From Candidatus Methanoperedens sp. (lineage in GTDB: Bacteria; Patescibacteriota; Microgenomatia; UBA12405), in assembly GCA_035562735.1 (NCBI GenBank), contig DATMWB010000014.1, positions 1 through 54,210 of the forward strand: DNA of 54,210 nt. Direction: 5' to 3'. Of the stretch, positions 3,001 through 54,210 are shown one piece after another. The translations under genes were made by a program, and so were the position numbers. A model generated the notes under the pieces. It was not told the DNA's origin and made no database searches. It saw nothing but the letters and a program-made list of their open reading frames with translations. Numbering within the stretch: the stretch's first letter is position 1; every line of letters begins with the position of its first letter.

Positions 3001-3984
3001 AAAAGTGGTGCCCATCAGGATGTGGCGGCAAAAGCAATAAATTATTTAATGAAGAATCGCTATCATGATTATTGGGGTAGTACTTACACAACTGCCCAGA
3101 CAATATTGGCGATTATTGATTATAGTTTGGCAGTGAAGGAGTCTGAAGCTAACATTTTGTATCGAGTAATGTCTGGCGGCGAACAATTGGCAAGTGGGAT
3201 GTTTAGTGGATCAAAAACTATACCCGCTTTAGTGAATATCGATTTGAAATTGTATGCCAAAAATAAGGAAATTAGGATTGAAAAAAAAGGTGAGGGGGAA
3301 TTATATACGACAGTTAACCAAAAATGGTGGATAAAAGATGCAAAATCACCCGAAGTATCCAATGGAGTTAAAATTGTAAAGACGATTGTAAATGTAAAGG
3401 GCGAGGCTTACAATTTTGTTCCGGGGGACTTGGTGAGAGTGAATTTAGATGTAAGCTTTCCTGATGGAGATAACATTGCTCGGGGATATGCGATTATAGA
3501 GGACCACCTACCTTCAGGATTGGTACCAGTAAATACTAGATTATTAAATGAATCTGACAATCAAAGTGATGATATTTATACGGAAAAGCAATTCTTAAAA
3601 GACGGAGTTATTATCCCTATTTTCTATTCTGGCAATACCCAGCGATTTAGTTACTTGGCAAGGATTATTAATGCTGGAACTTTTTATATGCCTCCGGCCT
3701 ATTATTCACAAATGTACTACCCTGATACTTGGGCGAGGTCAGAGTCATCGAGTTTTATGGTTGAAGATATGATAAGAATTAGTGCATTAAGTGGTATAAA
3801 AGATATCAAGTTAGATTTGAAGAATTACTTGACACTGAAGAATTTAGTCATTGTTATATTTTTTACAGCGATGTTGGGAGCTTTGGCTTTTTGGAAGAAA
3901 AAAAAGTTAAAGAGTATTAAAAATAATGAAGAAACTGAGGCGCCACCAAGAGACGAAACACCTGAATCGAACTCTAGTATTTAG
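1..3984 (+). CDS. Alpha-2-macroglobulin family protein, 5'-truncated by the window edge, with a C-terminal TM anchor
   Basis: Frame 1 is open from nt 1 (YDEAINFKVENYRKPEYFIE...), so the ATG at 76 is internal. Thioester motif GCVEQT lies in YPYGCVEQTTSAL (CVEQ = 2410-2421). Post-bait motif is RDNFADTAYWN. A C-terminal hydrophobic helix LVIVIFFTAMLGALAFW is followed by KKKK. Confidence 0.85.
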   Translation, partial: YDEAINFKVENYRKPEYFIEAESKVMEVVRGDEIDVEVKGEYFSGQPLSSEVVNYKIFASQGFGDYDYYYPISASNFYHAWGQNEIETGSVTLDSKGKAKVSLATNKNDSLGKYQLYYVEFSYADATGNQNLTAVNVLVRSGEVSIYRDSDTGYGGKTNQKLDLPLIVKSNQKGVNLAQNIEIGVARRWWQKYNDENSKYPQYREEKENMGNFFVNSDKSGKAVFSFTPTKEGSYELNTKMTDKRGNVVVKTFYLWVSDKYANYKGENSNSTIRITTDKKKYVPGDKAIINISSDIPDRDIYFGVERAYQDRYQVVHMNGTSADVELMISEHDMPNIFLVAKSFEVTGLQGDIQNVEVDTSNKKITYTINTDKKLYSPGDEVTVNVEARDKAGNPVESNLALWAVDKSLYSLADVNYGDVFETFWQKRGDETQQSHSLEGITVIGGAEKGGCFLPGTKVLMANSISKPIEDIKVGDKILTRVSPKSAKMMKTKVTALHSTFTMGYFVINAELKLTGNHLLMVNGKWAEARTISIGDELIGIGDKKIIVDSIEFLNLPSKVYNLTTDTYHSFFAEGVYVHNDKGGGTRDNFADTAYWNASINTGSDGRTQVKFKLPDNLTTWVLTTIGASSDTKAGQGFTEIKVSKDLAIRPVLPNVLGERDTITVSALVNNYSELESKATVELVTNAGEVLSPLSQKVEVLANDFVQVVWQIKVGEAKEKVKFEFKVNDDKGRSDAVVQEIEVRSIGYWEQKSDFRSGSSTISLQVPNIAYDINKSKVEVALSSTVMGSLPTALKYLINYPYGCVEQTTSALVPKLMARKYPVFFAEALKSESKYQVMSEGFDKLRELQNYDGSWSWWWKGSKPEAFVSAYVFRILNEAKLLGISIDEGMYNKALRYLSENFDNVEFENKIIKAYGLSFATDSKYHRGIEGDLSAVSDDFLAMAVQANLTAGINDSSKSGLDLLLKRMTVTDSGVHWNAGSLERFGSKEASTALAIQALAKSGAHQDVAAKAINYLMKNRYHDYWGSTYTTAQTILAIIDYSLAVKESEANILYRVMSGGEQLASGMFSGSKTIPALVNIDLKLYAKNKEIRIEKKGEGELYTTVNQKWWIKDAKSPEVSNGVKIVKTIVNVKGEAYNFVPGDLVRVNLDVSFPDGDNIARGYAIIEDHLPSGLVPVNTRLLNESDNQSDDIYTEKQFLKDGVIIPIFYSGNTQRFSYLARIINAGTFYMPPAYYSQMYYPDTWARSESSSFMVEDMIRISALSGIKDIKLDLKNYLTLKNLVIVIFFTAMLGALAFWKKKKLKSIKNNEETEAPPRDETPESNSSI
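1354..1740 (+). other. Hint / intein-like domain (129 aa) inserted in-frame in the A2M
   Basis: Starts with Cys (CFLPGTKVLM, block A). It has the TxxH block B (LTGNHLLMV), block F (VYNLTTDTYHSFFAEG) and terminal block G (VYVHN). The next residue is Asp, not Cys/Ser/Thr. The flanks are similar: ..EKGG before and DKGGG.. after. Confidence 0.8.
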
Positions 3985-4708
3985 TTTTGGGTTGTTGTTT
4001 TTGTTTTTATTGGTGTCTTTTTTGAAAGATCGCTTTACTGGTAGTGAAATGACTCCAAAGATAAGGGGGGCAATAGTAACTCATCATGAGGTAGCCCAAG
4101 AGTTGATGATTGATTTGGGAAAAAAGATATCTAATCAGGGTAGAGTTTTATCAAATATTATCATTGTGGGTCCGAATCATGATGAACTCGGAGGAGGAAA
4201 CTTGTTGAGTGATGATGAATTATTAGTTTATAAAAGTGAGAAATTAATTACTCATGATGAAGTTGTAGTAAATAGGGATCACGCTTGTTTTGCCCCAAGA
4301 TCTGTATTGCAAAAATATTTACCAAACACAAAAATATCATGTATCTTAGTTAGTAGTCGGACGCGAGAAGAAGAAATTAAAAAAATAGTGGAGATCTTAA
4401 AATCGAGCTTAGGGGAAGACGGAGTGTTGGTGGCCTCTGTTGATTTTTCCCATTACCTACCACTTCGAGATGCTTTGGAAAAGGATTCTATAACTTGGAA
4501 GTACATTGAAGAGTTTGATGTGGAGGCATTACAAAAACTGAATAATGACCATTTAGATTCTCCTAAAACGATGGCGATACTTTTTGAATATTTGAAGAAT
4601 ATTGGGGCGATGAATTTTTCAAAAGTAAAACATGTTAATTCGGCTCAAATATTGGGAACACTTGATAGTTCATCAACAACAAGTTATTTCGAGGTTATTT
4701 ATTGGTAG
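3926..4708 (+). CDS. Memo-like / AmmeMemoRadiSam system protein B-like protein with an N-terminal TM helix
   Basis: Motifs IVGPNHDE and VASVDFSHYLP resemble the GPxH and DxSHY metal-site motifs of the Memo/LigB-like superfamily. The N-terminal hydrophobic segment is LVFSFGLLFLFLLVSFL. The start is uncertain because it overlaps the A2M by 59 nt. Confidence 0.5.
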   Translation: MKKLRRHQETKHLNRTLVFSFGLLFLFLLVSFLKDRFTGSEMTPKIRGAIVTHHEVAQELMIDLGKKISNQGRVLSNIIIVGPNHDELGGGNLLSDDELLVYKSEKLITHDEVVVNRDHACFAPRSVLQKYLPNTKISCILVSSRTREEEIKKIVEILKSSLGEDGVLVASVDFSHYLPLRDALEKDSITWKYIEEFDVEALQKLNNDHLDSPKTMAILFEYLKNIGAMNFSKVKHVNSAQILGTLDSSSTTSYFEVIYW

Positions 4709-9036: not shown

Positions 9037-12000
9037 ATGAAAAGTATTAAAAGAAATTGGTTTTTTGTGGTTTTGGTTTTATTTTTTGCTTTGATATTGG
9101 GAGAAAGAAAGGTTGTATTTGGAGTTGAAAGACCTCCAATACTTCAAGAGGAGAAAACTAGTATTGATAACAAAGCTTATGTTGCAGGAGAGGTGGTCGT
9201 TAAATTTAAAAAAGATAAAATAAATCTAAATTCAACTTTTTCTTTGACAAGTCAGGTAAGGAAATTGATATTTGATTTAACAAATGGTTATGAAACTGGA
9301 GACACAATAAAAAGTGGTAACATTGTTGTCCTAAAGATTGGTGAAGGTCAGCAGGTTGATGAGGTCATTAACACTTTAATGTCCGATCCAAATGTGGAAT
9401 ATGCTGAGCCGAATTATTATCAACAACTTACTACTTTGAGTTTAAATGATACATATAAGGATAATCTTTGGGGTTTGGATAACTTTGGACAGAGTATAAC
9501 TTTGGGAAGTGGATTAACGGCTATTGGGACTAGCGGTGCGGATATTGATGTTCGACGAGCTTGGGCTTTGACAACGGGGAGTACGGAAGTAGTAGTGGCG
9601 GTGATTGATTCTGGGGTGGCATATAATCATCCAGATTTGAGTGGGGTAATGTGGGATGGAACAAGTTGTAAAGATGAAGACGGAAATGCTTTAGGCGGAT
9701 GTTTACATGGTTATGATTATCGATACGATAGTGAAGACAATGATCCATTGCCAACTGATAGTTCTCACGGAACACATGTTGCGGGAACTATCGCTGCTGA
9801 GAGAAACAACAGTAAAGGTATTGCAGGAGTGGCCCCAAATGTGAAAATAATGGCTCTTAAATTTGATTTAAGCTCAACTGCGGCAGCAAAGGCAATTGAT
9901 TTTGCAACCCAAAATGGAGTAAAGATCATTAACGCAAGCTGGGGGGGTAATTCTCCCTCATCAACAATTTATGACGCTATAGTCAGGTTTGAAACGGCTG
10001 GAGGTATTTTTGTGGCTGCAGCAGGAAATGAAGGAGAAGATAATGAATCGGTTCATCATTATCCATCTGATTATACTTTGAGTAACATTGTGGCAGTGGC
10101 GGCAACAGATCAAAATGATTTATTGGCTGATTTTTCAAATTTTGGTAGTACCTCAGTTGATGTGGCGGCACCGGGTGTAGATATATATAGTACGATTGAT
10201 GAGGCGGCGTTAATCGATTACGACTTTAATTCTATTGGTGGTGGATCTCTTCCTTCAACTTGGACTTCTGATCTTGGTGCTAGTTGGGGAGCATATAATT
10301 TAGGTGGTACTGGTACAGTGAATATGGCAATTTATGGAGATTTAAATTATCCCTATGTTGAAGGGGTTGATTCTTATGTGACATCAGATACTGTAAATTT
10401 GTCAACAGTATCAAATGCAAAGTTTAGTTTTTCCGCGGCGTGTGATACAGAAAATACAGATCCTTTGCTTGGGGGTGATTTTATGGCTCTTGAAGTTAGT
10501 GGTAATGGAACAACCTTTACTGAGATAGCAAGATGGAATGAATATTCTCTAACTGCATTAGGGGCTGTGCCTGGGTATTATTATACTTATGAAGTTGGTA
10601 TAAGTGCTTCAGATTTGACTAGTAATTTTAAATATAGATTGAGATGGACGACGGATACAGATGGAAGTTATGGAGGAGGAGATGGCTGTAAGGTTGATAA
10701 CTTTGAAATTATTACTTATACGGATGGTTCAGATGAGTTGTATGACTTTTATCAGGGAACTTCGATGGCGGCTCCTCATGTAGCTGGTTTGGCTGGATAT
10801 TTATGGTCAATAGCTCCGTCAGCTTCAATGAGCGATATTATTAGCAATATATTAGGTAATGGAGATACTTTAGCGTCACTGGCTGGTAAGACGTCGACAG
10901 GTAGAAGAATTAATGCTTATAACTCTGTAGTAAGTTTGGGGGTTACTGCTCCAGCCGGTCCATCGGTGACAGGTTTGAGTAATGATGCAGTGGCTGCCAA
11001 GAGTAAAACATTTACTTGGAGCTCAGCAACCCCATCCACTGACGGCTATCGTTTTTCTATTGATCAGTCAGTATCTGGCGTGCCTACTGGAAGTTATAGT
11101 GTGGGTCTAACTGGGACTACATATTCAAGTGGTGACGGAACTTTTTATATTCATGTTCAGGCACAAGACGCTGATTTAGCTGAAGGGGCGGTATCAACAG
11201 CCTCATTTATTTTGGATAATACGGGTCCTGAGGCAAGCGTAACTAGTAGTGCTACAAATTTGTTTATCTTATCCTTTGGTGAGACATTGTATAGCGATGT
11301 TGGTGCAACCTTTGCCATTGGAACTGATGTGGCTAGTAGATTTGCCGTAAGTTCAGAAATTGGAATTTCTGAAGCTCTTGTGGCTGGTAGTGAGAGTATA
11401 AGTATAGGTGTAACTGGAACACCACTGGCTGGGACGAATGTAAATTTACTTTCAGGAACAGCAACAAATAATTTTTATGATTATTTAACAAATGCAGGTG
11501 GAACTTTGGCTGTATTTTATGATGGTGATGCATGGCAGGCAAATCCAACCGCTTTAAATGTGGCGACAAGTCATTTTCCAGATTTAATTACCACAGGCCA
11601 ACTGACTTTGGGAGGAAGTGCTCCTGAGACGGCTACGTCAATTACAGCAGCAAATAATTTAACATTAAATATTGGGGGTACTGGGGCAAACAGTAGTGTT
11701 GGCTTGACACTGGGGACTATTATTACTGAACTAAATGATGCGGTATTTAACGCAAATCTAATATCTGGAACGCAAGTTGATGTGTCAACAATATCCGGTC
11801 TTGAGGTGGGTTACACAGCGGCTGGAGCGATTCAGTGGGGTATTACTGGAACAACACTGAAATTTAGTCAACCAATAATTGTAAGTATTTATCTTGGATC
11901 GGCCTATGATTCACAAACTTTATATGTTTATCGTTCCGAATCTTTGTCAGTAGGTTGGACTAGTACTGGGTTATCGTCACCAACCTGTGTAGTTAGTAGT

Positions 12001-12534
12001 GGTTATTGCTCTTTTGCAGCGACTCAAGCGTCTTATTTCTTGGCGGCATCGTCAGCAACGCCGACCCCAACTCCAAGTCCAACTTCTGCACCAACATCTG
12101 CACCGAGTAATGATAGTGGAAGTAACAATCAATCATCTGGGCCACCGGAAGCACCAAGATGCAACGACAGAATTCCAATATTTGCACCTGATTTGTTTAG
12201 AATTACTACTTCAAAAGGTAGTGCTAAGATTATTTTTACTCCGGTTAATGAACAAATTACGGGATATGCCGTCATGTATGGTCATAAGAAAGGTGATGAA
12301 AGGTATGCGGCTATATTTAGTCCCATAAATAACAATGAAGGGGAGCAGAGTTTTACTGTTAATAAGTTAAACCCAAAGATTACGTATTATTTTAAAGTTA
12401 CAGCATTCAACGGTTGTGTGTCTGGACCTTGGTCAGATTGGATTCCAGCAAAACCAGACAGGAAAAGAGAGATACATAAATACAAAACAGTAATAAAAAA
12501 TAAGGTTAAGACTTTAGTTAATAGATTTCTTTAA
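9037..12534 (+). CDS. Secreted S8 (subtilisin-like) serine peptidase with an inserted domain and a long C-terminal extension
   Basis: Signal peptide. Catalytic motifs VAVIDSGV (Asp), HGTHVAGTIAA (His), AAAGNEG (oxyanion Asn) and GTSMAAPHVAG (Ser). An insert of about 180 aa sits between APGVDIYS and GTSMAAPH. A PT-rich linker (ATPTPTPSPTSAPTSAPS) precedes an FN3-like end. Confidence 0.9.
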   Translation: MKSIKRNWFFVVLVLFFALILGERKVVFGVERPPILQEEKTSIDNKAYVAGEVVVKFKKDKINLNSTFSLTSQVRKLIFDLTNGYETGDTIKSGNIVVLKIGEGQQVDEVINTLMSDPNVEYAEPNYYQQLTTLSLNDTYKDNLWGLDNFGQSITLGSGLTAIGTSGADIDVRRAWALTTGSTEVVVAVIDSGVAYNHPDLSGVMWDGTSCKDEDGNALGGCLHGYDYRYDSEDNDPLPTDSSHGTHVAGTIAAERNNSKGIAGVAPNVKIMALKFDLSSTAAAKAIDFATQNGVKIINASWGGNSPSSTIYDAIVRFETAGGIFVAAAGNEGEDNESVHHYPSDYTLSNIVAVAATDQNDLLADFSNFGSTSVDVAAPGVDIYSTIDEAALIDYDFNSIGGGSLPSTWTSDLGASWGAYNLGGTGTVNMAIYGDLNYPYVEGVDSYVTSDTVNLSTVSNAKFSFSAACDTENTDPLLGGDFMALEVSGNGTTFTEIARWNEYSLTALGAVPGYYYTYEVGISASDLTSNFKYRLRWTTDTDGSYGGGDGCKVDNFEIITYTDGSDELYDFYQGTSMAAPHVAGLAGYLWSIAPSASMSDIISNILGNGDTLASLAGKTSTGRRINAYNSVVSLGVTAPAGPSVTGLSNDAVAAKSKTFTWSSATPSTDGYRFSIDQSVSGVPTGSYSVGLTGTTYSSGDGTFYIHVQAQDADLAEGAVSTASFILDNTGPEASVTSSATNLFILSFGETLYSDVGATFAIGTDVASRFAVSSEIGISEALVAGSESISIGVTGTPLAGTNVNLLSGTATNNFYDYLTNAGGTLAVFYDGDAWQANPTALNVATSHFPDLITTGQLTLGGSAPETATSITAANNLTLNIGGTGANSSVGLTLGTIITELNDAVFNANLISGTQVDVSTISGLEVGYTAAGAIQWGITGTTLKFSQPIIVSIYLGSAYDSQTLYVYRSESLSVGWTSTGLSSPTCVVSSGYCSFAATQASYFLAASSATPTPTPSPTSAPTSAPSNDSGSNNQSSGPPEAPRCNDRIPIFAPDLFRITTSKGSAKIIFTPVNEQITGYAVMYGHKKGDERYAAIFSPINNNEGEQSFTVNKLNPKITYYFKVTAFNGCVSGPWSDWIPAKPDRKREIHKYKTVIKNKVKTLVNRFL

Positions 12535-13193: not shown

Positions 13194-13487
13194 TTAATAG
13201 CGATTTCTGGAATAATTGTCACGTCGAGGTGGACGATCTTCCATTGGTTTAGCTTCGTTGACCTTAACGGTTCGACCGTCGAGTTCTTTGCCATCCCACA
13301 TATTGATAGCTGCTTGAGCTTCTTCTTCGGTGGACATTTCAACAAAACCGAATCCTTTGGATTGACCAGAGAATTTATCTTTGATAATTACTGCGGAGAT
13401 AACGCTTCCCGCTTGGGCGAAAGATGCACCCAAAGTGTCTTCAGTGGTTTGAAAAGACAAGCCACCGACATAGAGTTTCTTATTCAT
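13194..13487 (-). CDS. RRM-domain RNA-binding protein
   Basis: RNP-2 KLYVGGL and RNP-1 KGFGFVEM motifs, with a basic R-rich tail. Confidence 0.9.
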   Translation of the reverse strand: MNKKLYVGGLSFQTTEDTLGASFAQAGSVISAVIIKDKFSGQSKGFGFVEMSTEEEAQAAINMWDGKELDGRTVKVNEAKPMEDRPPRRDNYSRNRY

Positions 13488-13610
13488 TTTTTACTAACAA
13501 AATACTAAGAGGACAGTGCAGTATAAGGTAAAAGGGGGGAAATAGATAGCAATAGTATTGTTTTGGTATTTTTTTTTATATCAAATAGGTGCTTATTACT
13601 ACTAAATAGG

Positions 13611-13639
13611 TTGACTTTTATCCTATATATTAGTAATAT
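13611..13639 (+). promoter_or_regulatory. Sigma70-like promoter TTGACT-17 nt-TAATAT
   Basis: TTGACT at 13611-13616, a 17-nt spacer, TAATAT at 13634-13639. It sits about 200 nt upstream of the 13844 ORF. Confidence 0.5.
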
Positions 13640-13645
13640 ATGTTG

Positions 13646-13843
13646 TTTTCCACACAGGAGATTCAAAGCGAATCTGCATTTGTTGTGTGAAAGTCGATAG
13701 GGCGCGGCTCTATCGATCACTCTTTAAAAATCGGTTTTTCAAATCAAAGAAAGGAGGTGATAACAGGAAAATTGTGGTAATTAACCTAACCTCGTAAATC
13801 TAAAGGTTAGGGCCATTCATCGGATAGTAAGGGAGAAAAAAAC
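13646..13843 (+). promoter_or_regulatory. Long structured 5' leader of unknown class
   Basis: Nested hairpin cacaca/tgtgtg (13651-13656 with 13684-13689) encloses agattc/gaatct (13659-13664 with 13670-13675). Further hairpins are tcgatag/ctatcga (13694-13700 with 13710-13716) and cctaacct/aggttagg (13785-13792 with 13804-13811). An orphan perfect SD, AAGGAGGTGA (13751-13760), has no start codon at proper spacing. Confidence 0.35.
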
Positions 13844-15388
13844 ATGAAGACCAAGATTAGGTTTTCAAAGGTAATGAGTTTGTTTTTGCTGTTAGGCTTG
13901 ATGTTGAGCGCGTTGAACGTGGGAACTGTGTCAGCGCACCACTCAACAATTACCGGAAAGGTTGTCTGTCAAGCTGATGGAAATCAGAGAATTGATTGGA
14001 CAATCAAAAATTCTGAATCTGGGAAGATCGAGACTGTCACAGCACTGAGCCGATCAATCGGTCTGTCTGTACCATTCGACATTCCAAAGAGTGGAAAAGC
14101 GACTGGGTCGGAAGTATTCTCTGGTTCGGCAACTAGTGTCATCACACTGAGTGTGACTGCTACTTGGCCTGGATATGGACCGGTGACAAATACTGGCTCT
14201 GTAACCTTGCCTGGTGGATGTCAGCCACCTCAACCCCAGAAGGTATATGTGTGCAAGTACGTAGGCACACCTGGGGTAAATGAAAGGTTGCAGGATGGAA
14301 ACAATCCGATTGAAGTTTCGATAAACTCCATTCCGGATTATCAGGGTGTTGGCTCATATTTTGGTGATGCTCATTCGAGATCCTATGTTTTGGCAACCGT
14401 CCCCCAAAATCCTGAACCGACAAGAGCTGACTGTCCACAACCGCCTGTCTATGGCTGCATGGATGAAACGGCGCTGAACTATAACCCATTGGCAACAGTG
14501 GATGACGGTTCATGTCAATATCCTCCGCCTCCAGTACCTGGCTGCATGGATGAAACGGCGCTGAACTATAACCCATTGGCAACAGTGGATGACGGTTCAT
14601 GTCAATATCCTCCTGAGGAAGTCCTTGGTTGTACTGATCCCGAAGCAACTAATTTCAATCCCTTGGCGACAAAGGATGATGGGTCGTGTCAGTACACTCC
14701 TGAACCTCCGGAGCCGCCGGTCGTCGTTAGGGTCAAACCAGTATGCACTGAACTAGGTTGTTTTGGACCCAATATTGATGACACACCGTCTGACGGGGAA
14801 TGTGTGGCAACTGTTATCACAGCTGATGACGTTTGTCATTTTGACCCCAAATCATGGTCCTGTGTCTCAGGTCATCCACAAGTGGTGCTGTATTGCCTAA
14901 ATGCAGATAGTGCCGTCCGAATGGGTGGGGTTTATTTTGAGACATCTCCGGTGACCAATGCTGATCAACCAGGTTGGTCGATTCTTTACACACCCTTGGG
15001 TGCATATCGAGACTATTGGTTCTGGCTGAAAGCAGGTCTGAATCCAGAAATGGATGATGTTGAGTTCTGGACAAATTGGCAGGATAAGATTTTCCTGACC
15101 AAGTCAGCACCCCAATATCACGGCGCTGCCTGTTCATTACCGGTTTTATTTACGGTTGACGGTGGTTACATCGAACTTCTTCCTGGACAGAACTCCTGGG
15201 AGGCAATAAAGTTCGTGGTCGAACGACAGTGGGGTCTTTCAGAAGACGCAGATAGCGTCTTGTATCATCGGGCATGGGGTTACGTGGATCAGTACTTCAA
15301 GGACAATCCCTTGACTGATCCAGTACGCTTATGGAAACACAACAAGGTTTTGGCTCCGGCCAGACCTGATTGGGTTCCAGAGCCCTAA
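13844..15388 (+). CDS. Secreted protein of unknown function with three CxDxxAxNYNPxAxxDDGSCQY modules, in a GC-rich island
   Basis: Signal peptide ending VSA|HH and SD-like aagggag 8 nt before the ATG. The motif GC(M/T)D..A.N(Y/F)NPLAT.DDGSCQY is repeated three times. GC content is visibly higher than in all neighbouring genes. Confidence 0.7.
   Translation: MKTKIRFSKVMSLFLLLGLMLSALNVGTVSAHHSTITGKVVCQADGNQRIDWTIKNSESGKIETVTALSRSIGLSVPFDIPKSGKATGSEVFSGSATSVITLSVTATWPGYGPVTNTGSVTLPGGCQPPQPQKVYVCKYVGTPGVNERLQDGNNPIEVSINSIPDYQGVGSYFGDAHSRSYVLATVPQNPEPTRADCPQPPVYGCMDETALNYNPLATVDDGSCQYPPPPVPGCMDETALNYNPLATVDDGSCQYPPEEVLGCTDPEATNFNPLATKDDGSCQYTPEPPEPPVVVRVKPVCTELGCFGPNIDDTPSDGECVATVITADDVCHFDPKSWSCVSGHPQVVLYCLNADSAVRMGGVYFETSPVTNADQPGWSILYTPLGAYRDYWFWLKAGLNPEMDDVEFWTNWQDKIFLTKSAPQYHGAACSLPVLFTVDGGYIELLPGQNSWEAIKFVVERQWGLSEDADSVLYHRAWGYVDQYFKDNPLTDPVRLWKHNKVLAPARPDWVPEP
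14453..14700 (+). repeat. 3 x 87-bp in-frame tandem repeat (29-aa modules)
   Basis: 14453-14526 and 14540-14613 are identical 74-nt cores. A diverged third copy begins at 14627. The period is 87 bp. Confidence 0.9.
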
Positions 15389-15421
15389 GCCCACAAAACT
15401 TTTATGATTTGAAACAACCGG

Positions 15422-15484
15422 CCCGGGGAGGAGCAATAAAAAGCCTCCCCGGGATCCCCGGGAAAATTTTGGTTTTTCCGGGGA
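15422..15484 (+). terminator. Two consecutive GC-rich hairpins after the island ORF (possible terminator or 3'-end protection)
   Basis: 10-bp stem cccggggagg/cctccccggg (15422-15431 with 15444-15453). 7-bp stem tccccgg/ccgggga (15455-15461 with 15478-15484), whose loop contains ttttggttttt. There is no classical trailing U-tract. Confidence 0.4.
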
Positions 15485-15486
15485 AT

Positions 15487-15544
15487 TAGCGTATTCCGCC
15501 AAGCGGGACTGATGAGTATCTCCTAAGAGGGGAACGAAACGCTA
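15487..15544 (+). ncRNA. Type III hammerhead self-cleaving ribozyme motif
   Basis: The sequence reads UAGCGU-A|UUCCGC-CAA-GCGGGA-CUGAUGA-GUAUCUCC-UAAGA-GGGGAAC-GAAA-CGCUA. The invariant CUGAUGA (15509-15515) and GAAA (15536-15539) are present. The A15.1:U16.1 pair and the GUA cleavage triplet are present. Stems I, II and III are all closed by complementary sequence. Confidence 0.75.
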
Positions 15545-15554
15545 CAATAATACG

Positions 15555-16619
15555 ATGATAAAAATTGAGGATTATGATTACGAATTGCCACAAGAGTTAA
15601 TTGCTCAGGAGGCATTGGAAAAAAGAGATGAATGCCGACTTTTAATAGTAAATAGACTCACCCCCAACCCCTCCCTTAAAAGTGAGGGGAAAAATAATAT
15701 TAGTAATAATATTGGAAGTATTAGTGAAAAGAAGTTTTTTGAAATAGCGGATGAATTAGGGGAAAATGATGTATTAGTGTTGAATGAAAGCCGGGTGTTT
15801 CCAGCAAGATTAATTGGAAAAAAGGATAGTGGGGGAAGGGTAGAACTGCTATTGCTCAACAGACTAAATGAATTTGAATGGGAAGCCATATGTCGTCCTG
15901 GGTTAAAAAATGGTAAGCAATTATTTTTTGATGGTTTGAAGGCTGAAGTTATTGGAAATTTAGAAGAAACTATAAAGGTCAAATTTGATTTTAAAGGTGA
16001 TTTTTGGAAAATTTTAGAAAGCATTGGTAAAACGCCAATTCCACCATATATTCATAATGATAAAGAGAATGTGATTCGACGTGACTATCAGACGGTGTAC
16101 GCGGCGAATTATGGATCGGCAGCGGCACCCACAGCAGGATTGCATTTTACCGACGGTTTACTAAAGAAATTGCTGGAAAATGGAGTTCAAATAGAGAAAG
16201 TAAATTTAAATGTAGGACTAGGGACCTTTAAACCAATTAATGAAAAAAATTTGAAAACAGGGAAGTTGCATTTGGAATTTTTAGAAATAAAAACAGAAGT
16301 GGCCCAAAGATTAAATATGGCTAAAAAACAAGGAAAAAGAATTATTGCAGTTGGAACAACTTCAGTAAGGGTCTTGGAAGCGATGAGCGATATAAGGGGA
16401 AAATTAAAATCGGGGAGCGGAGAAACGGATATCTTCATATACCCTCCTTATAAATTTAAATTTGTAGATTCTTTAATTACTAATTTTCATTTGCCTAAGA
16501 GCAGTCTTTTAATGTTGATTGCAGCTATGATTGGGGAGGAATGGCGAGAGGTGTACAAATTTGCTATAAAAAAACGATTTAGGTTTTTCAGTTTTGGTGA
16601 TGCAACGTGGATCAGATAA
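15555..16619 (+). CDS. queA: S-adenosylmethionine:tRNA ribosyltransferase-isomerase
   Basis: DYDYELPQELIAQEALEKRDECRLL, NESRVFPARL, PIPPYI, YQTVYA, AAPTAGLHFT, AVGTTSVR, TNFHLPKSSLLML, RFFSFGDA. Confidence 0.92.
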   Translation: MIKIEDYDYELPQELIAQEALEKRDECRLLIVNRLTPNPSLKSEGKNNISNNIGSISEKKFFEIADELGENDVLVLNESRVFPARLIGKKDSGGRVELLLLNRLNEFEWEAICRPGLKNGKQLFFDGLKAEVIGNLEETIKVKFDFKGDFWKILESIGKTPIPPYIHNDKENVIRRDYQTVYAANYGSAAAPTAGLHFTDGLLKKLLENGVQIEKVNLNVGLGTFKPINEKNLKTGKLHLEFLEIKTEVAQRLNMAKKQGKRIIAVGTTSVRVLEAMSDIRGKLKSGSGETDIFIYPPYKFKFVDSLITNFHLPKSSLLMLIAAMIGEEWREVYKFAIKKRFRFFSFGDATWIR

Positions 16620-25802: not shown

Positions 25803-26735
25803 TTATTTTTCAATGAAGCTCCATTTGGGATTGGTGGTGATTTCCGAAAATAGGATATCGCTATACATTTGGTTGGCGAGGGCGTTTGGATGTGGGTCTG
25901 TGGGGCTAAGGCTAAAGTTCATGTAAACTTTTTCATCGAAATATCTTTTGTATTTGTCCATATATTTACCAATACTTGTCGAAATAGTTGTTTTATTGTT
26001 TTTAGTGAGTAATTGATGGTAGTAGTCAAATTGGGTGTTGTCACGATGATAATCTTTATCGATGAGAAAAATGGCATTGTCTTTTGGGAGTAGTTGGATG
26101 CTTTGGTCGACGACACATTGATTAATAGGGTTTTTCCATGATTGATTAATGATTGAATCAATAGGAAAATCTTCAATGAAATAGGTTGGTTTTTCATTTA
26201 TGTACTTTTTTTGGCAATTATTTGTGATTGGGTCATTAGTATTCGACTTATTTAGAATGGCATCGTTTGTGACAGGGAGAATGATATAAAGGTTTGCAAA
26301 GATGAGATTGGATATTCTCTGATAGCTATTATAGTAGTCGAGAGTATTATTTCCACGTTTACCATAAGAAAAGACACGAGTTGGTCTAATTTTGTTTAAT
26401 CTTTTTTCTAATAATTTGGCGAATCTTTGGTTGTTTCTAACTCCTTGACCCCAAACATGAGAATCACCAATGATGGCAATTCGAAACTGGTTTTGTAAAA
26501 TTTCGCCTTTTAATTCATTGAGATTGTTTAGGGCTGATAGATCTTTTCCTCGGTCACCATAATCTAAAAAATTAAAATTTTCTTCTGATAAAACGTAACC
26601 ATGTGTATTGCTTTTTTGATAAAAAAATTTGTCGAAGAAATATTTTTCAGCGAGTCGATAACAAAGATAGCTTACGATTACACAGAGGGACAATGAAAGT
26701 AAAACTAAAAGGATAATTCTATTTGTTTTCTTCAT
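25803..26735 (-). CDS. TM-anchored SGNH hydrolase, tandem paralog 3 of 3
   Basis: Shared motifs AEKYFFDKFFYQKS, IAIIGDSHVWGQGV, LNKIRPT, DPHPNALANQMY, ITTNPKWSF. Confidence 0.6.
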   Translation of the reverse strand: MKKTNRIILLVLLSLSLCVIVSYLCYRLAEKYFFDKFFYQKSNTHGYVLSEENFNFLDYGDRGKDLSALNNLNELKGEILQNQFRIAIIGDSHVWGQGVRNNQRFAKLLEKRLNKIRPTRVFSYGKRGNNTLDYYNSYQRISNLIFANLYIILPVTNDAILNKSNTNDPITNNCQKKYINEKPTYFIEDFPIDSIINQSWKNPINQCVVDQSIQLLPKDNAIFLIDKDYHRDNTQFDYYHQLLTKNNKTTISTSIGKYMDKYKRYFDEKVYMNFSLSPTDPHPNALANQMYSDILFSEITTNPKWSFIEK

Positions 26736-27648
26736 TTGTGTCTATAAAGCCCCATTGTGGATTGGTAATAATTTCATTAAAAAGAGTGTTTGCATAAATT
26801 TTATTGGATTTAGAGGAGGGGTGGCTTTCGGCTTTACTTACTGATGAATTTATTGATATGTTATATGGGATGTTTATGATATTAAGATCGTTTGAAATTA
26901 TGTTGTTAAATTCATCATTAATATCAAACACACCTTGAATACTACTAAGATTGATGTAAATAGTGTTTGATTTTGGCAATAATGGCAGTAAGTTTTTATA
27001 GGCACAATAATTGGCCGAATTAATCGAGAGGGAAGATTTAACAGCCTGATAATATTTGTCTGGTGAAGGATTGTCATCAACATCGTAAATAACATTCTGG
27101 GGACAGTTTCTTATGAGAATGTTTAGAAAATCGTCTGAAGAATATCTATTATCACCGTTTAATAAAAAGTCATTATAGAGTAGTCCAAAGATATATAAGT
27201 TTGCTTGGCCAAAAACCGATAATGATTTTTTGTATTTTAAATAGTTATCAAATATATTATCACCACCTATTCCAAGTGAATATACTTTTGTTGGTCTAAT
27301 TTTGTTTAACTTATTTTCGAGGATGTGGGCAAACCTGTCTGGATTTTTTATGCCTTGTCCCCAGAGGTAAGAATCGCCCAATATAACAATTTTGTAATTG
27401 TGGTCGTCAAAAGTACCAAGAACATCGGAGTTACTTGAGTTTAAGGTGATAATATCTTTTGCTCTATCTCCAAAGTCGGCATAAGATAGTTTTGAATTAG
27501 TAGTCCAATAGCCGTGAGTGACACTTTTCTGAAAAAATATCTTATCAAAAAAGTATTTTTCTGCTATGTAGTAGCAAATGAAATAGGTAATAAGACATGT
27601 TATGGCTGATAAAAGAATAAGAATAAAAATTTTATGTAATCTTGACAT
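26719..27648 (-). CDS. TM-anchored SGNH hydrolase, tandem paralog 2 of 3
   Basis: AEKYFFDKIFFQKS, IVILGDSYLWGQGI, LNKIRPT, ESHPSSKSN, ITNPQWGF. Confidence 0.6.
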   Translation of the reverse strand: MSRLHKIFILILLSAITCLITYFICYYIAEKYFFDKIFFQKSVTHGYWTTNSKLSYADFGDRAKDIITLNSSNSDVLGTFDDHNYKIVILGDSYLWGQGIKNPDRFAHILENKLNKIRPTKVYSLGIGGDNIFDNYLKYKKSLSVFGQANLYIFGLLYNDFLLNGDNRYSSDDFLNILIRNCPQNVIYDVDDNPSPDKYYQAVKSSLSINSANYCAYKNLLPLLPKSNTIYINLSSIQGVFDINDEFNNIISNDLNIINIPYNISINSSVSKAESHPSSKSNKIYANTLFNEIITNPQWGFIDTNEENK

Positions 27649-28622
27649 TATTTAGTAAATTCCCATTGTGGATTGGTGGTGATTTCATTATATAAGATGT
27701 CGGCATACATTTGGTTAGCTAGGGCACTTGGATGACCTTCTTTTTGACTGATAATGAAATATTTTTGAATATTATTGTAATATTTGATGTATTTTGGAAG
27801 TTTTAAAGTGTTTATGTTTGTGCTTAAGAGATATTTACTATGGTTTATTAAGAATTCTTGGTATTTTTTATATAAAAAATTATTACCAAAATAATCGGTG
27901 GTAATAAAATAAATAGATTTATCCTTTGGAAGGATGGATAAACTTTGATTTAAAATACACATATTTACTGGATTGTTCCAGGCACTAGTAATAAAAGATT
28001 CATAATTTAAGAGATGGTGAATATCATTTTGGGAAATGAAGTCGCTGTCAAATACGGGTCGATAATTTTGAGTGGTTGATAAGCATTGGTTATAAACGGG
28101 AGATGACTTGTCGTTTTTATTTACTAAAATATCATTTTCAACTAAACTGAAAATGGTTATATTTGGATTTAATGTTTTTGATAAACTTTGATAATTATTT
28201 AGATAATCGACGATGTTCCAACCGGTTTTTCCCAAAGATAATATCTTTGTTGGACGAATTTTATTTAGTTTTTTTGAGAGAAGGTGAGAAAATCTTTGAT
28301 TATTTTTTACACCTTGTCCCCAGAGATATGAGTCACCAAAAATTACGATAGTGTAGGTTTTTTCCATATCATCTAGTTTGAAGTTGCTTTGAGTCTCGAG
28401 ATCTTGACTGCGTTCGCCAAAGTCAATGTGATTACTCTTATTGTAGTTTTCGGGTATATATCCGTGGGCGATACTTTTTTGATAAAAAAATTTGTCAAAG
28501 AAATATTTTTCAGCAATAAGATAGCAAAATAGATATGTTGAAAGTGATAACAGAATCGATAAAAACAATAAAGGTAATACTTTTTTGATTTTTTTCACTG
28601 GTCTAAAAAAGCATATATACAA
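27648..28622 (-). CDS. TM-anchored SGNH hydrolase, tandem paralog 1 of 3 (start may be GTG at 28598)
   Basis: AEKYFFDKFFYQKS, IVIFGDSYLWGQGV, LNKIRPT, EGHPSALANQMY, ITTNPQWEF. The ATG at 28622 overlaps the small upstream ORF. A GTG at 28598 would give MKKIKKVLPL, matching the paralog N-termini. Confidence 0.6.
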   Translation of the reverse strand: MYICFFRPVKKIKKVLPLLFLSILLSLSTYLFCYLIAEKYFFDKFFYQKSIAHGYIPENYNKSNHIDFGERSQDLETQSNFKLDDMEKTYTIVIFGDSYLWGQGVKNNQRFSHLLSKKLNKIRPTKILSLGKTGWNIVDYLNNYQSLSKTLNPNITIFSLVENDILVNKNDKSSPVYNQCLSTTQNYRPVFDSDFISQNDIHHLLNYESFITSAWNNPVNMCILNQSLSILPKDKSIYFITTDYFGNNFLYKKYQEFLINHSKYLLSTNINTLKLPKYIKYYNNIQKYFIISQKEGHPSALANQMYADILYNEITTNPQWEFTK

Positions 28623-53026: not shown

Positions 53027-54210
53027 ATGAAAAAGGGCTTCGCTCAAATTCCTTTGATGATAGGGTTATTGTTGATGGCGGTAGCGGTTCCGGTAGCAAC
53101 AAAACTGGTACAAACCAATCAGGATACAAGGAATAAGGCGGCTCATATATGTGGTGCATTGGGACAGGGATGTTGTTTAACTGAGTATGTTGGAGCAACA
53201 CCTATCTATAATACGTGTAATTCACCTCTTAAATGTAATGGGGGAAAATGTTCTACTACTGGGGCTCCCACTGTAACAAAGTCCCCACTGACTCCAACAG
53301 TTGCAGGAGGTTGTGTGGCTGCTTCTGGAAGACCCTATTTAGCTAATGGTGCAACATATTGTGAAACACCCTATCTATTAGGATCTAGAAAATGGAAATG
53401 TACTAATGGGGTTGCTTCTGTGGCACAAAACTATCTTGTAGCTAGGAATTGTGAAGAAACAATACCAACGTTGTCAGCAGGTGGATGTAGATATCTAATT
53501 GCTGGGATAACGGAAACATTAACAAATGGTCAAGAGAAATGTTACAACCTGGCTGGTTCTTCACTGGGTTCACAAAAAATTAAATGTAGTAACGGTTCGA
53601 CAAGTGTTGTTCAAACTTACGTTCAAAATGATTGTAAAGCCATCTTACCAACTCTCTCTCCCGGCGGTTGTCGCTACATATTCGCTGGATTAACTGAAAC
53701 CCTAAAGAATGGTGAGCAAAAATGTTACAACTTGGCAGTAGGTGAGTTCGGATCACAAATGATCAAGTGTAGTAATGGGTCTACAAGCTCAGTTCAAAAG
53801 TATATTCAACAAGATTGTAAAGCCATCTTACCAACTCTTTCTCCCGGCGGTTGTCGCTACATATTCGCTGGATTAACTGAAACCCTAAAGAATGGTGAGC
53901 AAAAATGTTACAACTTGGCAGTAGGTGAGTTCGGATCACAAATGATTAAGTGTAGTAATGGATCTACAAGCTCAGTTCAAAAGTATATTCAACAAGATTG
54001 TAAAGCCATCTTACCAACTCTCTCTCCCGGCGGTTGTCGCTACATATTCGCTGGATTAACTGAAACCCTAAAGAATGGTGAGCAGAAATGTTACAACTTG
54101 GCAGTGGGTGAGTTCGGATCACAAATGATTAAGTGTAGTAATGGATCTACAAGCTCAGTTCAAAAGTATATTCAACAAGATTGTAAAGCCATCTTACCAA
54201 CTCTCTCTCC
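53027..54210 (+). CDS. Secreted/anchored protein built of about 61-aa four-cysteine modules, 3'-truncated by the window edge and absent from the ORF track
   Basis: Manual translation from the ATG at 53027 gives MKKGFAQIPLMIGLLLMAVAVPVATKL.... Repeated GGCRY(I/L).AG.TETL.NG..KCYNLA......Q.IKCSNGSTS.VQ.Y.Q.DCKAILPTLSP modules follow. No stop occurs before nt 54210. Confidence 0.7.
   Translation, partial: MKKGFAQIPLMIGLLLMAVAVPVATKLVQTNQDTRNKAAHICGALGQGCCLTEYVGATPIYNTCNSPLKCNGGKCSTTGAPTVTKSPLTPTVAGGCVAASGRPYLANGATYCETPYLLGSRKWKCTNGVASVAQNYLVARNCEETIPTLSAGGCRYLIAGITETLTNGQEKCYNLAGSSLGSQKIKCSNGSTSVVQTYVQNDCKAILPTLSPGGCRYIFAGLTETLKNGEQKCYNLAVGEFGSQMIKCSNGSTSSVQKYIQQDCKAILPTLSPGGCRYIFAGLTETLKNGEQKCYNLAVGEFGSQMIKCSNGSTSSVQKYIQQDCKAILPTLSPGGCRYIFAGLTETLKNGEQKCYNLAVGEFGSQMIKCSNGSTSSVQKYIQQDCKAILPTLS
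53639..54210 (+). repeat. 183-bp tandem repeat, 3 full near-identical copies plus a partial fourth
   Basis: Copies start at 53639, 53822, 54005 and 54188. Adjacent full copies differ at 3 of 183 positions. More diverged copies lie upstream from about 53273. Confidence 0.9.

Follow-up and report, generated by a model that had tools for sequence, protein, structure and literature searches.

Results

The queA locus and its inserted cassette

The DNA analysed here, a stretch of 54,210 nt (the window), derives from a bacterium related to Candidatus Shapirobacteria, within the candidate phyla radiation (CPR). On its plus strand the gene for a secreted protein is followed by two hairpins, a type III hammerhead motif and queA, the first gene of a queA-rpsB-tsf run (Table 1). 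In the related loci L001, L021 and L022/L023, queA and the gene for an RRM protein are divergent neighbours about 65 nt apart, as against approximately 2.07 kb in the window; in L002 and L024 other genes lie upstream of queA, and none of these five loci has either the cassette or the hammerhead. The native RRM-queA spacer of L001 is homologous to the window as far as about 13535, and then again only from G.TA.AATA (15541-15549), immediately ahead of the queA start codon. A conserved queA leader was considered as an identity for the motif and rejected, as L001, L002, L021, L022/L023 and L024 all carry queA without it.

Table 1. Coordinates of the cassette, the hammerhead motif and queA in the window.
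Feature	Position	Strand	Remarks
Cassette 5' region	13536..13843	+	Promoter-like site, ~200-nt leader, SD
Promoter-like site TTGACT-17-TAATAT	13611-13639	+	
Cassette gene, 514-aa secreted protein	13844..15388	+	~49% GC vs ~33% for the genome
GC hairpin 1	15422..15453	+	10 bp, 12-nt loop, no U-tract after
GC/AU hairpin 2	15455..15484	+	13 bp, no U-tract after
Type III hammerhead motif	15487..15544	+	Consensus, fold, homologous copies
Stem III, 6 bp, open	15487-15492 / 15539-15544	+	Read from sequence
Stem I and CAA loop	15494-15508	+	6 bp, one U.G pair
Core CUGAUGA (C3-A9)	15509-15515	+	
Stem II, bulged A15518 and UAAGA loop	15516-15535	+	7 bp, opens with G10.1:C11.1
G12-A13-A14 (GAA)	15536-15538	+	
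TACAAT, -10-like box	15543..15548	+	6 nt before queA ATG, overlaps last two bases of stem III
queA (S-adenosylmethionine:tRNA ribosyltransferase-isomerase)	15555..16619	+	Pfam Queuosine_synth, E=7.7e-114

The cassette protein combines a signal peptide with three 29-aa repeats bracketed by Cys and, at its C terminus, a rare domain; the start codon of its gene is preceded by the SD sequence AAGGGAG. The leader upstream of this gene (13640-13843) contains at least three hairpins (at about 13651-13690, 13694-13719 and 13786-13812), has no Rfam match, is 83.5% identical in L006, and may be regulatory. Of the two hairpins behind the gene, the first has an equivalent in L007 that is formed from diverged sequence (A-U to G-C) in a region only about 55% identical overall, while the second shows compensatory changes there (C-G to U-A, G.U to G-C); terminator prediction on the plus strand returned nothing at hairpin 2. 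An earlier note on this DNA had described a foreign-looking, GC-rich gene and two GC hairpins ahead of the motif, and both descriptions stand: the gene differs from the genome in GC content, carries an SD sequence in an SD-poor genome and is absent from five related loci, and folding confirms the hairpins. Searches of the cassette found neither a second ribozyme nor another RNA family; there were no convincing terminal repeats at the ends of the insert, and no integrase, transposase or reverse transcriptase was found in or around it. Viral contigs, queried with two DNA patterns and two proteins, gave no matches, and phage and plasmid records gave short chance matches only.

A type III hammerhead motif at the cassette edge

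The plus strand at 15487-15544 reads TAGCGT-A-TTCCGC-CAA-GCGGGA-CTGATGA-GTATCTCC-TAAGA-GGGGAAC-GAAA-CGCTA (58 nt), and ends 10 nt before the queA ATG (15555). Three helices surround the core, helices I and II being capped by loops and helix III being open; A15.1 (15539) pairs with U16.1 (15492), and position 17 (15493) is A, a non-G residue, giving a GUA cleavage triplet with predicted scission between 15493 and 15494. The lowest-energy fold (MFE) of the 58-mer is the three-way junction, which is retained in contexts of 144-201 nt together with the two upstream hairpins, and which is also the MFE of the L007 and L014 copies described below. The region has the same sequence in L004, an independently made assembly of this genome (Logan SRR7550492). 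On re-reading, the sequence, coordinates and helix lengths given in the earlier note proved correct throughout, and its identification of a complete type III hammerhead consensus is borne out, all core positions and three helices being there. No further copy was found within the window, even with search filters off or with our own descriptor.

The covariance model Hammerhead_3 of Rfam (RF00008) aligns with the motif from end to end (model positions 1-54) at 25.5 bits, under a gathering score of 48.5 bits that is a curated annotation cut-off and no biochemical criterion; a search at that threshold reported nothing. The corresponding E-value of 0.0016 is valid for a permissive search of 241 nt only and becomes approximately 0.4 when scaled to the whole window, and the match was lost again when the search was widened to 2.6 kb. 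Among Markov-shuffled windows, a strict descriptor (core plus helices of 6/2/6 bp) matched 1 of 300, and a looser one (core plus 4/2/4 bp) matched 23 of 300. Taken alone, then, the motif is suggestive but not decisive, and because it is marginal by itself the case rests on comparative evidence. The earlier note had counted the want of a significant covariance-model score against a hammerhead, and by that measure the sub-threshold score tells against the element; we judge the measure too strict, because the homologous copy in L014 likewise reaches only 32.7 bits, above the window copy and still below 48.5. Genuine bacterial hammerheads can, it would follow, score well under the Rfam gathering score.

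Homologous copies

Five further distinct copies were recovered: related Shapirobacteria have four of them, at the corresponding locus, and the fifth (L014) lies in an unrelated gene context. The full-length cassette protein was a poor query, its search being swamped by the Cys-bracketed repeat, and only the C-terminal non-repeat domain retrieved true relatives, just two in number (contigs L006 and L007), in both of which the cassette gene, hairpins, hammerhead and queA occur in the same order. Look-ups guided by QueA added L019 and L020, with intact hammerheads, and L018, with half a motif, and a pattern scan of metagenomes returned the L006 type from a second sample (L016) as well as L014. 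The comparisons that follow concern six distinct copies (the window, L006/L016/L017, L007, L019, L020 and L014), five of them from one locus type. The remaining pattern matches were set aside, L008, L010, L011, L013 and L015 as GC-rich chance matches, and L009 and L012 as they have no stem I and reach at most 18.5 bits with the family model. A tie between the hammerhead and the cassette protein family at large was also rejected, given that behind the only broader homologue (P0078/L005) there is an ordinary hairpin but no hammerhead.

All five queA-linked copies end exactly 10 nt before the queA ATG. The L014 copy has different surroundings: a gene for a 344-aa protein is followed by a hairpin without a U-tract, an A/G-rich stretch, the hammerhead and, 40 nt on, a gene for a GT2 glycosyltransferase. 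Its similarity to the window runs from ATTAGCGT to CGCTA, that is, between the two ends of stem III, with unrelated sequence on either side. In both gene contexts, the queA locus and L014, the hairpins ahead of the hammerhead have no U-tracts.

The core (C3 U4 G5 A6 N7 G8 A9 and G12 A13 A14) is present in six of six distinct copies, which differ elsewhere. Relative to the window, L020 and L019 have a bulged U and altered second loops (TAAATA and TAAAAA, respectively, for TAAGA), and L007 has U to A at 16.6, C-G for the U.G pair of stem I and a bulged C, all three retaining A at position 17. L014 carries the canonical GUC triplet (C17), a C-G pair at the same place in stem I, UAA as its first loop, C-G to G-C and U.G to U-A in stem II, and AAUUUAU as its second loop. 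Position 17 must be other than G under the NUH rule, for which Kore et al. (1998) is cited in PMC3088659, and G17 is predicted to be inactive. It is A or C in all five intact copies, and G in L006 and L016, which also have G to A in stem I and hence a C.A mismatch. These two changes are predicted to disable the L006/L016 hammerhead, the MFE of which is no longer a hammerhead fold. The cassette gene of L006 contains an in-frame TAG (TTG to TAG; 1341-1343 of L006, corresponding to about 14487 of the window) and is short of one 87-nt repeat unit, and its loss appears recent because the C-terminal part is still 96% identical at the protein level. The ribozyme changes are likewise recent, to judge from L019, which has an L006-type queA start and keeps an intact hammerhead. 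The coincidence of a putatively dead ribozyme with a nonsense-mutated cassette gene fits a function tied to the cassette, in what is a single case.

The main caveat to the ribozyme reading comes from L018, in which only the 3' half of the motif is present (A6 to the end of stem II, then GAAAC and TACAAT), at approximately 89% identity, next to an unrelated 5' part. As no ribozyme is possible there and the half nonetheless stays so similar, something other than cleavage, such as a part in the queA promoter region, may keep the 3' half conserved. Two readings are open to it: a fossil of recent date, or a sequence also useful as DNA upstream of queA.

The RRM-queA spacer (13488-15554 in the window) is a hotspot for insertions: L001, L021 and L023 have nothing in it, the window and L006 have the 514-aa cassette, and L007 and L020 show the 3' end of the cassette beside queA. 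The L018 spacer (3249-4063) contains an HTH_3 gene and a 134-aa minus-strand gene along with its half hammerhead, and on contig P0124 a 736-aa gene is separated from queA by a gap of 152 nt. Horizontal exchange of the cassette, as inferred from queA divergence, was considered and downgraded: the QueA tree is star-like, and queA is itself an outlier, because rpsB and the RRM gene are 90-98% identical. The identity profile is also compatible with vertical descent and a fast-evolving queA, and in the rough QueA tree the hammerhead-bearing loci are not cleanly grouped.

Conservation of the core and helices

Between the window and L007, the hammerhead is 91.5% identical (5 differences in 59 columns), as against 61-63% for the cassette gene, 54-61% for the spacer and hairpins, and 72-75.5% for queA. 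The probability of so few differences is about 1e-7 to 1e-9 at the rate of the cassette flanks (39-44% differing), and 0.0015 at that of coding queA (24.5% differing). Across the six distinct copies, variation is seen at none of the ten unpaired core positions and at 8 of the 12 other unpaired positions (Fisher p=0.0017), with 6 of 38 paired positions variable. Stem cells pair in 98.2% of cases across copies, compared with 37-48% in slid registers, and the changes within stems comprise one compensatory pair (C-G to G-C in stem II), two changes of one partner only (from U.G to C-G in one case, to U-A in the other) and two breaks. With only six sequences, formal covariation is not significant: the observed score was equalled or exceeded in 94 of 500 shuffles. 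Support for the helices comes mainly from conservation and from single changes that preserve pairing, and the identity of most stem positions could also be explained by recent shared ancestry or spread. The earlier note had proposed comparison with related loci, where a freely varying core and stems that do not covary would argue against a hammerhead; what we find there speaks for one, as the core is invariant, substitutions affect position 17, the bulge and the loops, and most stem changes preserve pairing.

The first loop is a conserved YAA, and the second varies (UAAGA, UAAAUA, UAAAAA and AAUUUAU). No consistent pairing or pseudoknot between loops I and II was found across the copies, L014 alone being able to pair UAA with UUA. 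Fast cleavage at physiological Mg2+ requires a tertiary contact between the peripheries of stems I and II, and given this variability and the want of consistent loop-loop pairing it is not assured.

A probable queA promoter

Among the 42 genes of the window, -10-like (TATAAT-like) boxes are enriched approximately 6-fold in the interval 5-13 nt before start codons, and 13 genes have such a box ending 4-10 nt before the ATG, where about 2.6 are expected. SD sequences are rare, with even a tetramer match in only 7 of the 42 genes, the cassette gene being an exception with its clear SD. This pattern suggests a CPR genome in which mRNAs are normally leaderless. The gap of 6 nt between TACAAT and the queA ATG is the modal spacing, and in the cassette-free loci TAAAAT stands 6-8 nt ahead of the same codon. 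Together with the enrichment of boxes and the rarity of SD sequences, this makes it probable that queA is leaderless and has its own promoter; the ribozyme would therefore occur on transcripts derived from the cassette, and not on the normal queA mRNA. Predicted cleavage would leave queA with a leader of 61 nt and no SD, which is unlike a way of making a translatable queA mRNA. The suggestion of the earlier note that cleavage provides a queA mRNA beginning with a 5'-OH and the ribozyme scaffold is accordingly doubtful, in view of the box overlapping stem III, its leaderless spacing and the scarcity of SD sequences, and a putative insulator role is plausible for read-through transcripts only.

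Discussion

The homologous copies show that the motif between the cassette and queA is beyond chance, and we hold it to be, with high probability on sequence grounds, a genuine hammerhead. Our preferred explanation, which we consider rather more probable than its competitors combined, is that this 58-nt element is a genuine type III hammerhead that closes an acquired cassette of about 2 kb and serves the transcript of that cassette, in forming its 3' end and uncoupling it from what lies beyond. For the specific function so proposed, namely a 3' end for the cassette mRNA and separation from queA, the balance is close to even.

The motif and its folds, the conservation pattern, the cassette boundaries and the promoter-box statistics are observations; cleavage activity, read-through and the effects on RNA stability we infer, along the following lines. 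RNA polymerase would start at the cassette's own promoter, transcribe the secreted-protein gene and pass the two strong hairpins, which should not terminate it because they lack U-tracts. The ribozyme, once transcribed, would fold as the lowest-energy three-way junction and cut after A15493. The cassette mRNA would thereby acquire a defined 3' end (a 2',3'-cyclic phosphate) just behind two protective hairpins, and would be detached from untranslated read-through RNA extending into queA-rpsB-tsf; with an open stem III of only 6 bp, the 5' product should dissociate and re-ligation be disfavoured. queA itself would start leaderless, from the TACAAT box that overlaps the 3' edge of the ribozyme.

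The most serious competitor, though an unlikely one in our estimation, reverses the beneficiary: the hammerhead would be a 5' insulator for queA, which would owe most of its expression to read-through from the cassette, and cleavage would yield a 5'-OH queA-rpsB-tsf mRNA with a structured, RiboJ-like leader. The invariable 10 nt between hammerhead and ATG in five of five queA-linked copies speaks for this, synthetic hammerhead insulators do act in such a way (PMC7536230), and the insertion has parted queA from what precedes its -10 box in cassette-free relatives, with no good -35 hexamer to be found inside the hammerhead. Against this, TACAAT has been kept at the modal leaderless spacing and has a homologue in the TAAAAT of cassette-free loci, the cleaved RNA would have a 61-nt leader without an SD in a genome of apparently leaderless starts, and the L014 hammerhead precedes a different gene at a different distance. 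The persistence of a 3' half beside queA in L018, the overlap with the -10 box, the sub-threshold Rfam score and the non-significant covariation might instead suggest that what is conserved is a DNA element or an RNA without catalysis, perhaps a queA promoter or operator or a structured 3' UTR, which resembles the hammerhead consensus incidentally. We regard this as improbable, since L014 has the whole module without TACAAT or queA, with homology ending exactly at the edges of stem III, and since cassette-free relatives run queA without the block; nor would a promoter need ten of ten unpaired core positions to be invariant while loops and bulge vary, or stem changes to preserve pairing.

More improbable again is that the ribozyme belongs to the mobility or RNA life cycle of the cassette, for instance in processing the RNA intermediate of a mobile element, and marks the end of that element instead of forming mRNA 3' ends. 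Its place at the right-hand edge of the insert, the different cargo of the RRM-queA spacer between lineages, the recurrence of the module behind an unrelated cargo gene in L014 and the failure of the rough QueA tree to group hammerhead loci cleanly are all in keeping with mobility, but the cassette showed no integrase, transposase, reverse transcriptase, second ribozyme or terminal repeats, viral, phage and plasmid collections held no matches beyond short chance ones, and the identity profile fits vertical descent with a fast-evolving queA too. Pure coincidence with a hammerhead descriptor might be entertained from the approximately 8% of shuffled 54-kb windows that match loose descriptors, and from the E-value scaled to the whole window; it is effectively refuted by the homologous copies, given the sharp peak of conservation and the intact recurrence of the motif in an unrelated context, and the strict descriptor is matched by a single shuffle in 300.

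Very probably, then, the element belongs to a known ribozyme class, and what sets it apart is the sub-threshold score, the CPR host, the fixed association with hairpins lacking U-tracts and the position at a cassette edge abutting a probable leaderless promoter. It resembles type III hammerheads (RF00008, clan CL00010) in its full core, A15.1-U16.1 pair, GUA or GUC triplet, closed loops I and II with III open, and G10.1-C11.1 pair. It departs from typical members of that family in scoring 25.5-32.7 bits, in its 7-bp stem II with a conserved one-nt bulge after the second pair, and in its short stem I with a YAA triloop; no loop-loop tertiary contact could be recognised in its sequence. Unlike the hammerheads of viroids and satellite RNAs, it occurs once in the DNA genome of a CPR bacterium. 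A parallel to the self-cleavage predicted here for a bacterial mRNA is glmS, a metabolite-dependent riboswitch ribozyme of different fold that resides in the 5' UTR, and whose cleavage alters the fate of the flanking RNA via a new 5'-OH; unlike glmS, the present element gives no hint of ligand control.

Hundreds of bacterial hammerheads are known, in all three topologies, often beside accessory or prophage genes and sometimes flanking genes, and they have been suggested to process polycistronic RNA (Perreault et al., 2011, PMC3088659; de la Pena et al., 2017, PMC6155905). The element shares with these an intergenic position between co-directional genes, a neighbouring cargo that is accessory or poorly conserved, and a proposed role in cutting long transcripts down to gene-length RNAs. 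It differs in being a single ribozyme outside any cluster, with no integrase or prophage nearby and no match in viral collections; in being always preceded by hairpins without U-tracts; and, at queA, in adjoining, and overlapping by two bases, the -10 box of a housekeeping gene that is probably leaderless. Synthetic insulators of the RiboJ type place a hammerhead and a hairpin between promoter and gene (PMC7536230). As in RiboJ, the hammerhead here lies just upstream of a coding sequence, and cleavage would remove the upstream RNA context. RiboJ sits within the 5' UTR of the translated mRNA it serves, with a ribosome-binding site next to it, whereas at queA the sequence offers a TACAAT 6 nt before the ATG, no SD and a genome enriched in such boxes, all of which point to a separate leaderless start. 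It is therefore more likely that the natural element forms 3' ends for the gene upstream than that it acts in the manner of RiboJ.

A literature search found no paper mentioning both hammerhead ribozymes and the candidate phyla radiation, and the present locus adds a probable example from that group. For the role of bacterial hammerheads, this locus provides an exceptionally clean natural series: loci with neither cassette nor hammerhead, loci with both intact, a nonsense-mutated cassette with a G17 hammerhead, a half-ribozyme that may be a fossil, and the same module behind other cargo. The series makes it possible to test the hypothesis that 3' ends made by a ribozyme uncouple an acquired gene from a leaderless housekeeping operon. 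A broader and much more speculative proposal, to which we give little weight at present, is that one or more non-terminating hairpins together with a type III hammerhead constitute a portable 3'-end-forming and insulating module of acquired, SD-dependent genes in leaderless CPR genomes. Were this so, the module would replace an intrinsic terminator and allow cargo to be dropped onto a housekeeping promoter without fusing the RNAs, the 3' strand of the ribozyme even supplying part of the downstream -10 box.

Other features of the window

Within the RRM gene, the 15 nt at 13407-13421 match the complement of hammerhead stem I and its loop (15494-15508) at 87%, probably by chance, because many similar short matches were listed. 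queA contains an in-frame, GC-rich palindromic insert at 15657-15713 (CCCCTCCCTTAAAAGTGAGGGG), which encodes ...TPNPSLKSEGKNN..., and the palindrome has no second copy in the window. In related QueA proteins this point carries other, hypervariable inserts (PTPDPSLKSEGKN, ENPHIPLEKGGQ and PTPNPSLDRAGRKN) or none, and the site looks like a hotspot for in-frame insertion of hairpin elements. Further downstream, tsf is unusually short (152 aa), and between tsf and frr the window has a block that is extra relative to L001 (18187-21575), comprising a gene on the minus strand (483 aa) and one with a GATase_6/7 (glutamine amidotransferase) domain (626 aa); a subtilase gene (9037-12534) is likewise missing from the equivalent site in L001. 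On the minus strand, 25803-28528 is taken up by three paralogous genes or units in a row, each about 0.92 kb long (about 239-310 aa) and sharing repeated segments that are 60-81% identical. Tandem direct repeats with a period of 183 nt run from 53384 to the end of the window at 54210, in at least four copies, with 92% identity among the later copies. Over all 54 kb, at approximately 33% GC, the GC skew is positive throughout, strongly and evenly so (commonly 0.2-0.48).
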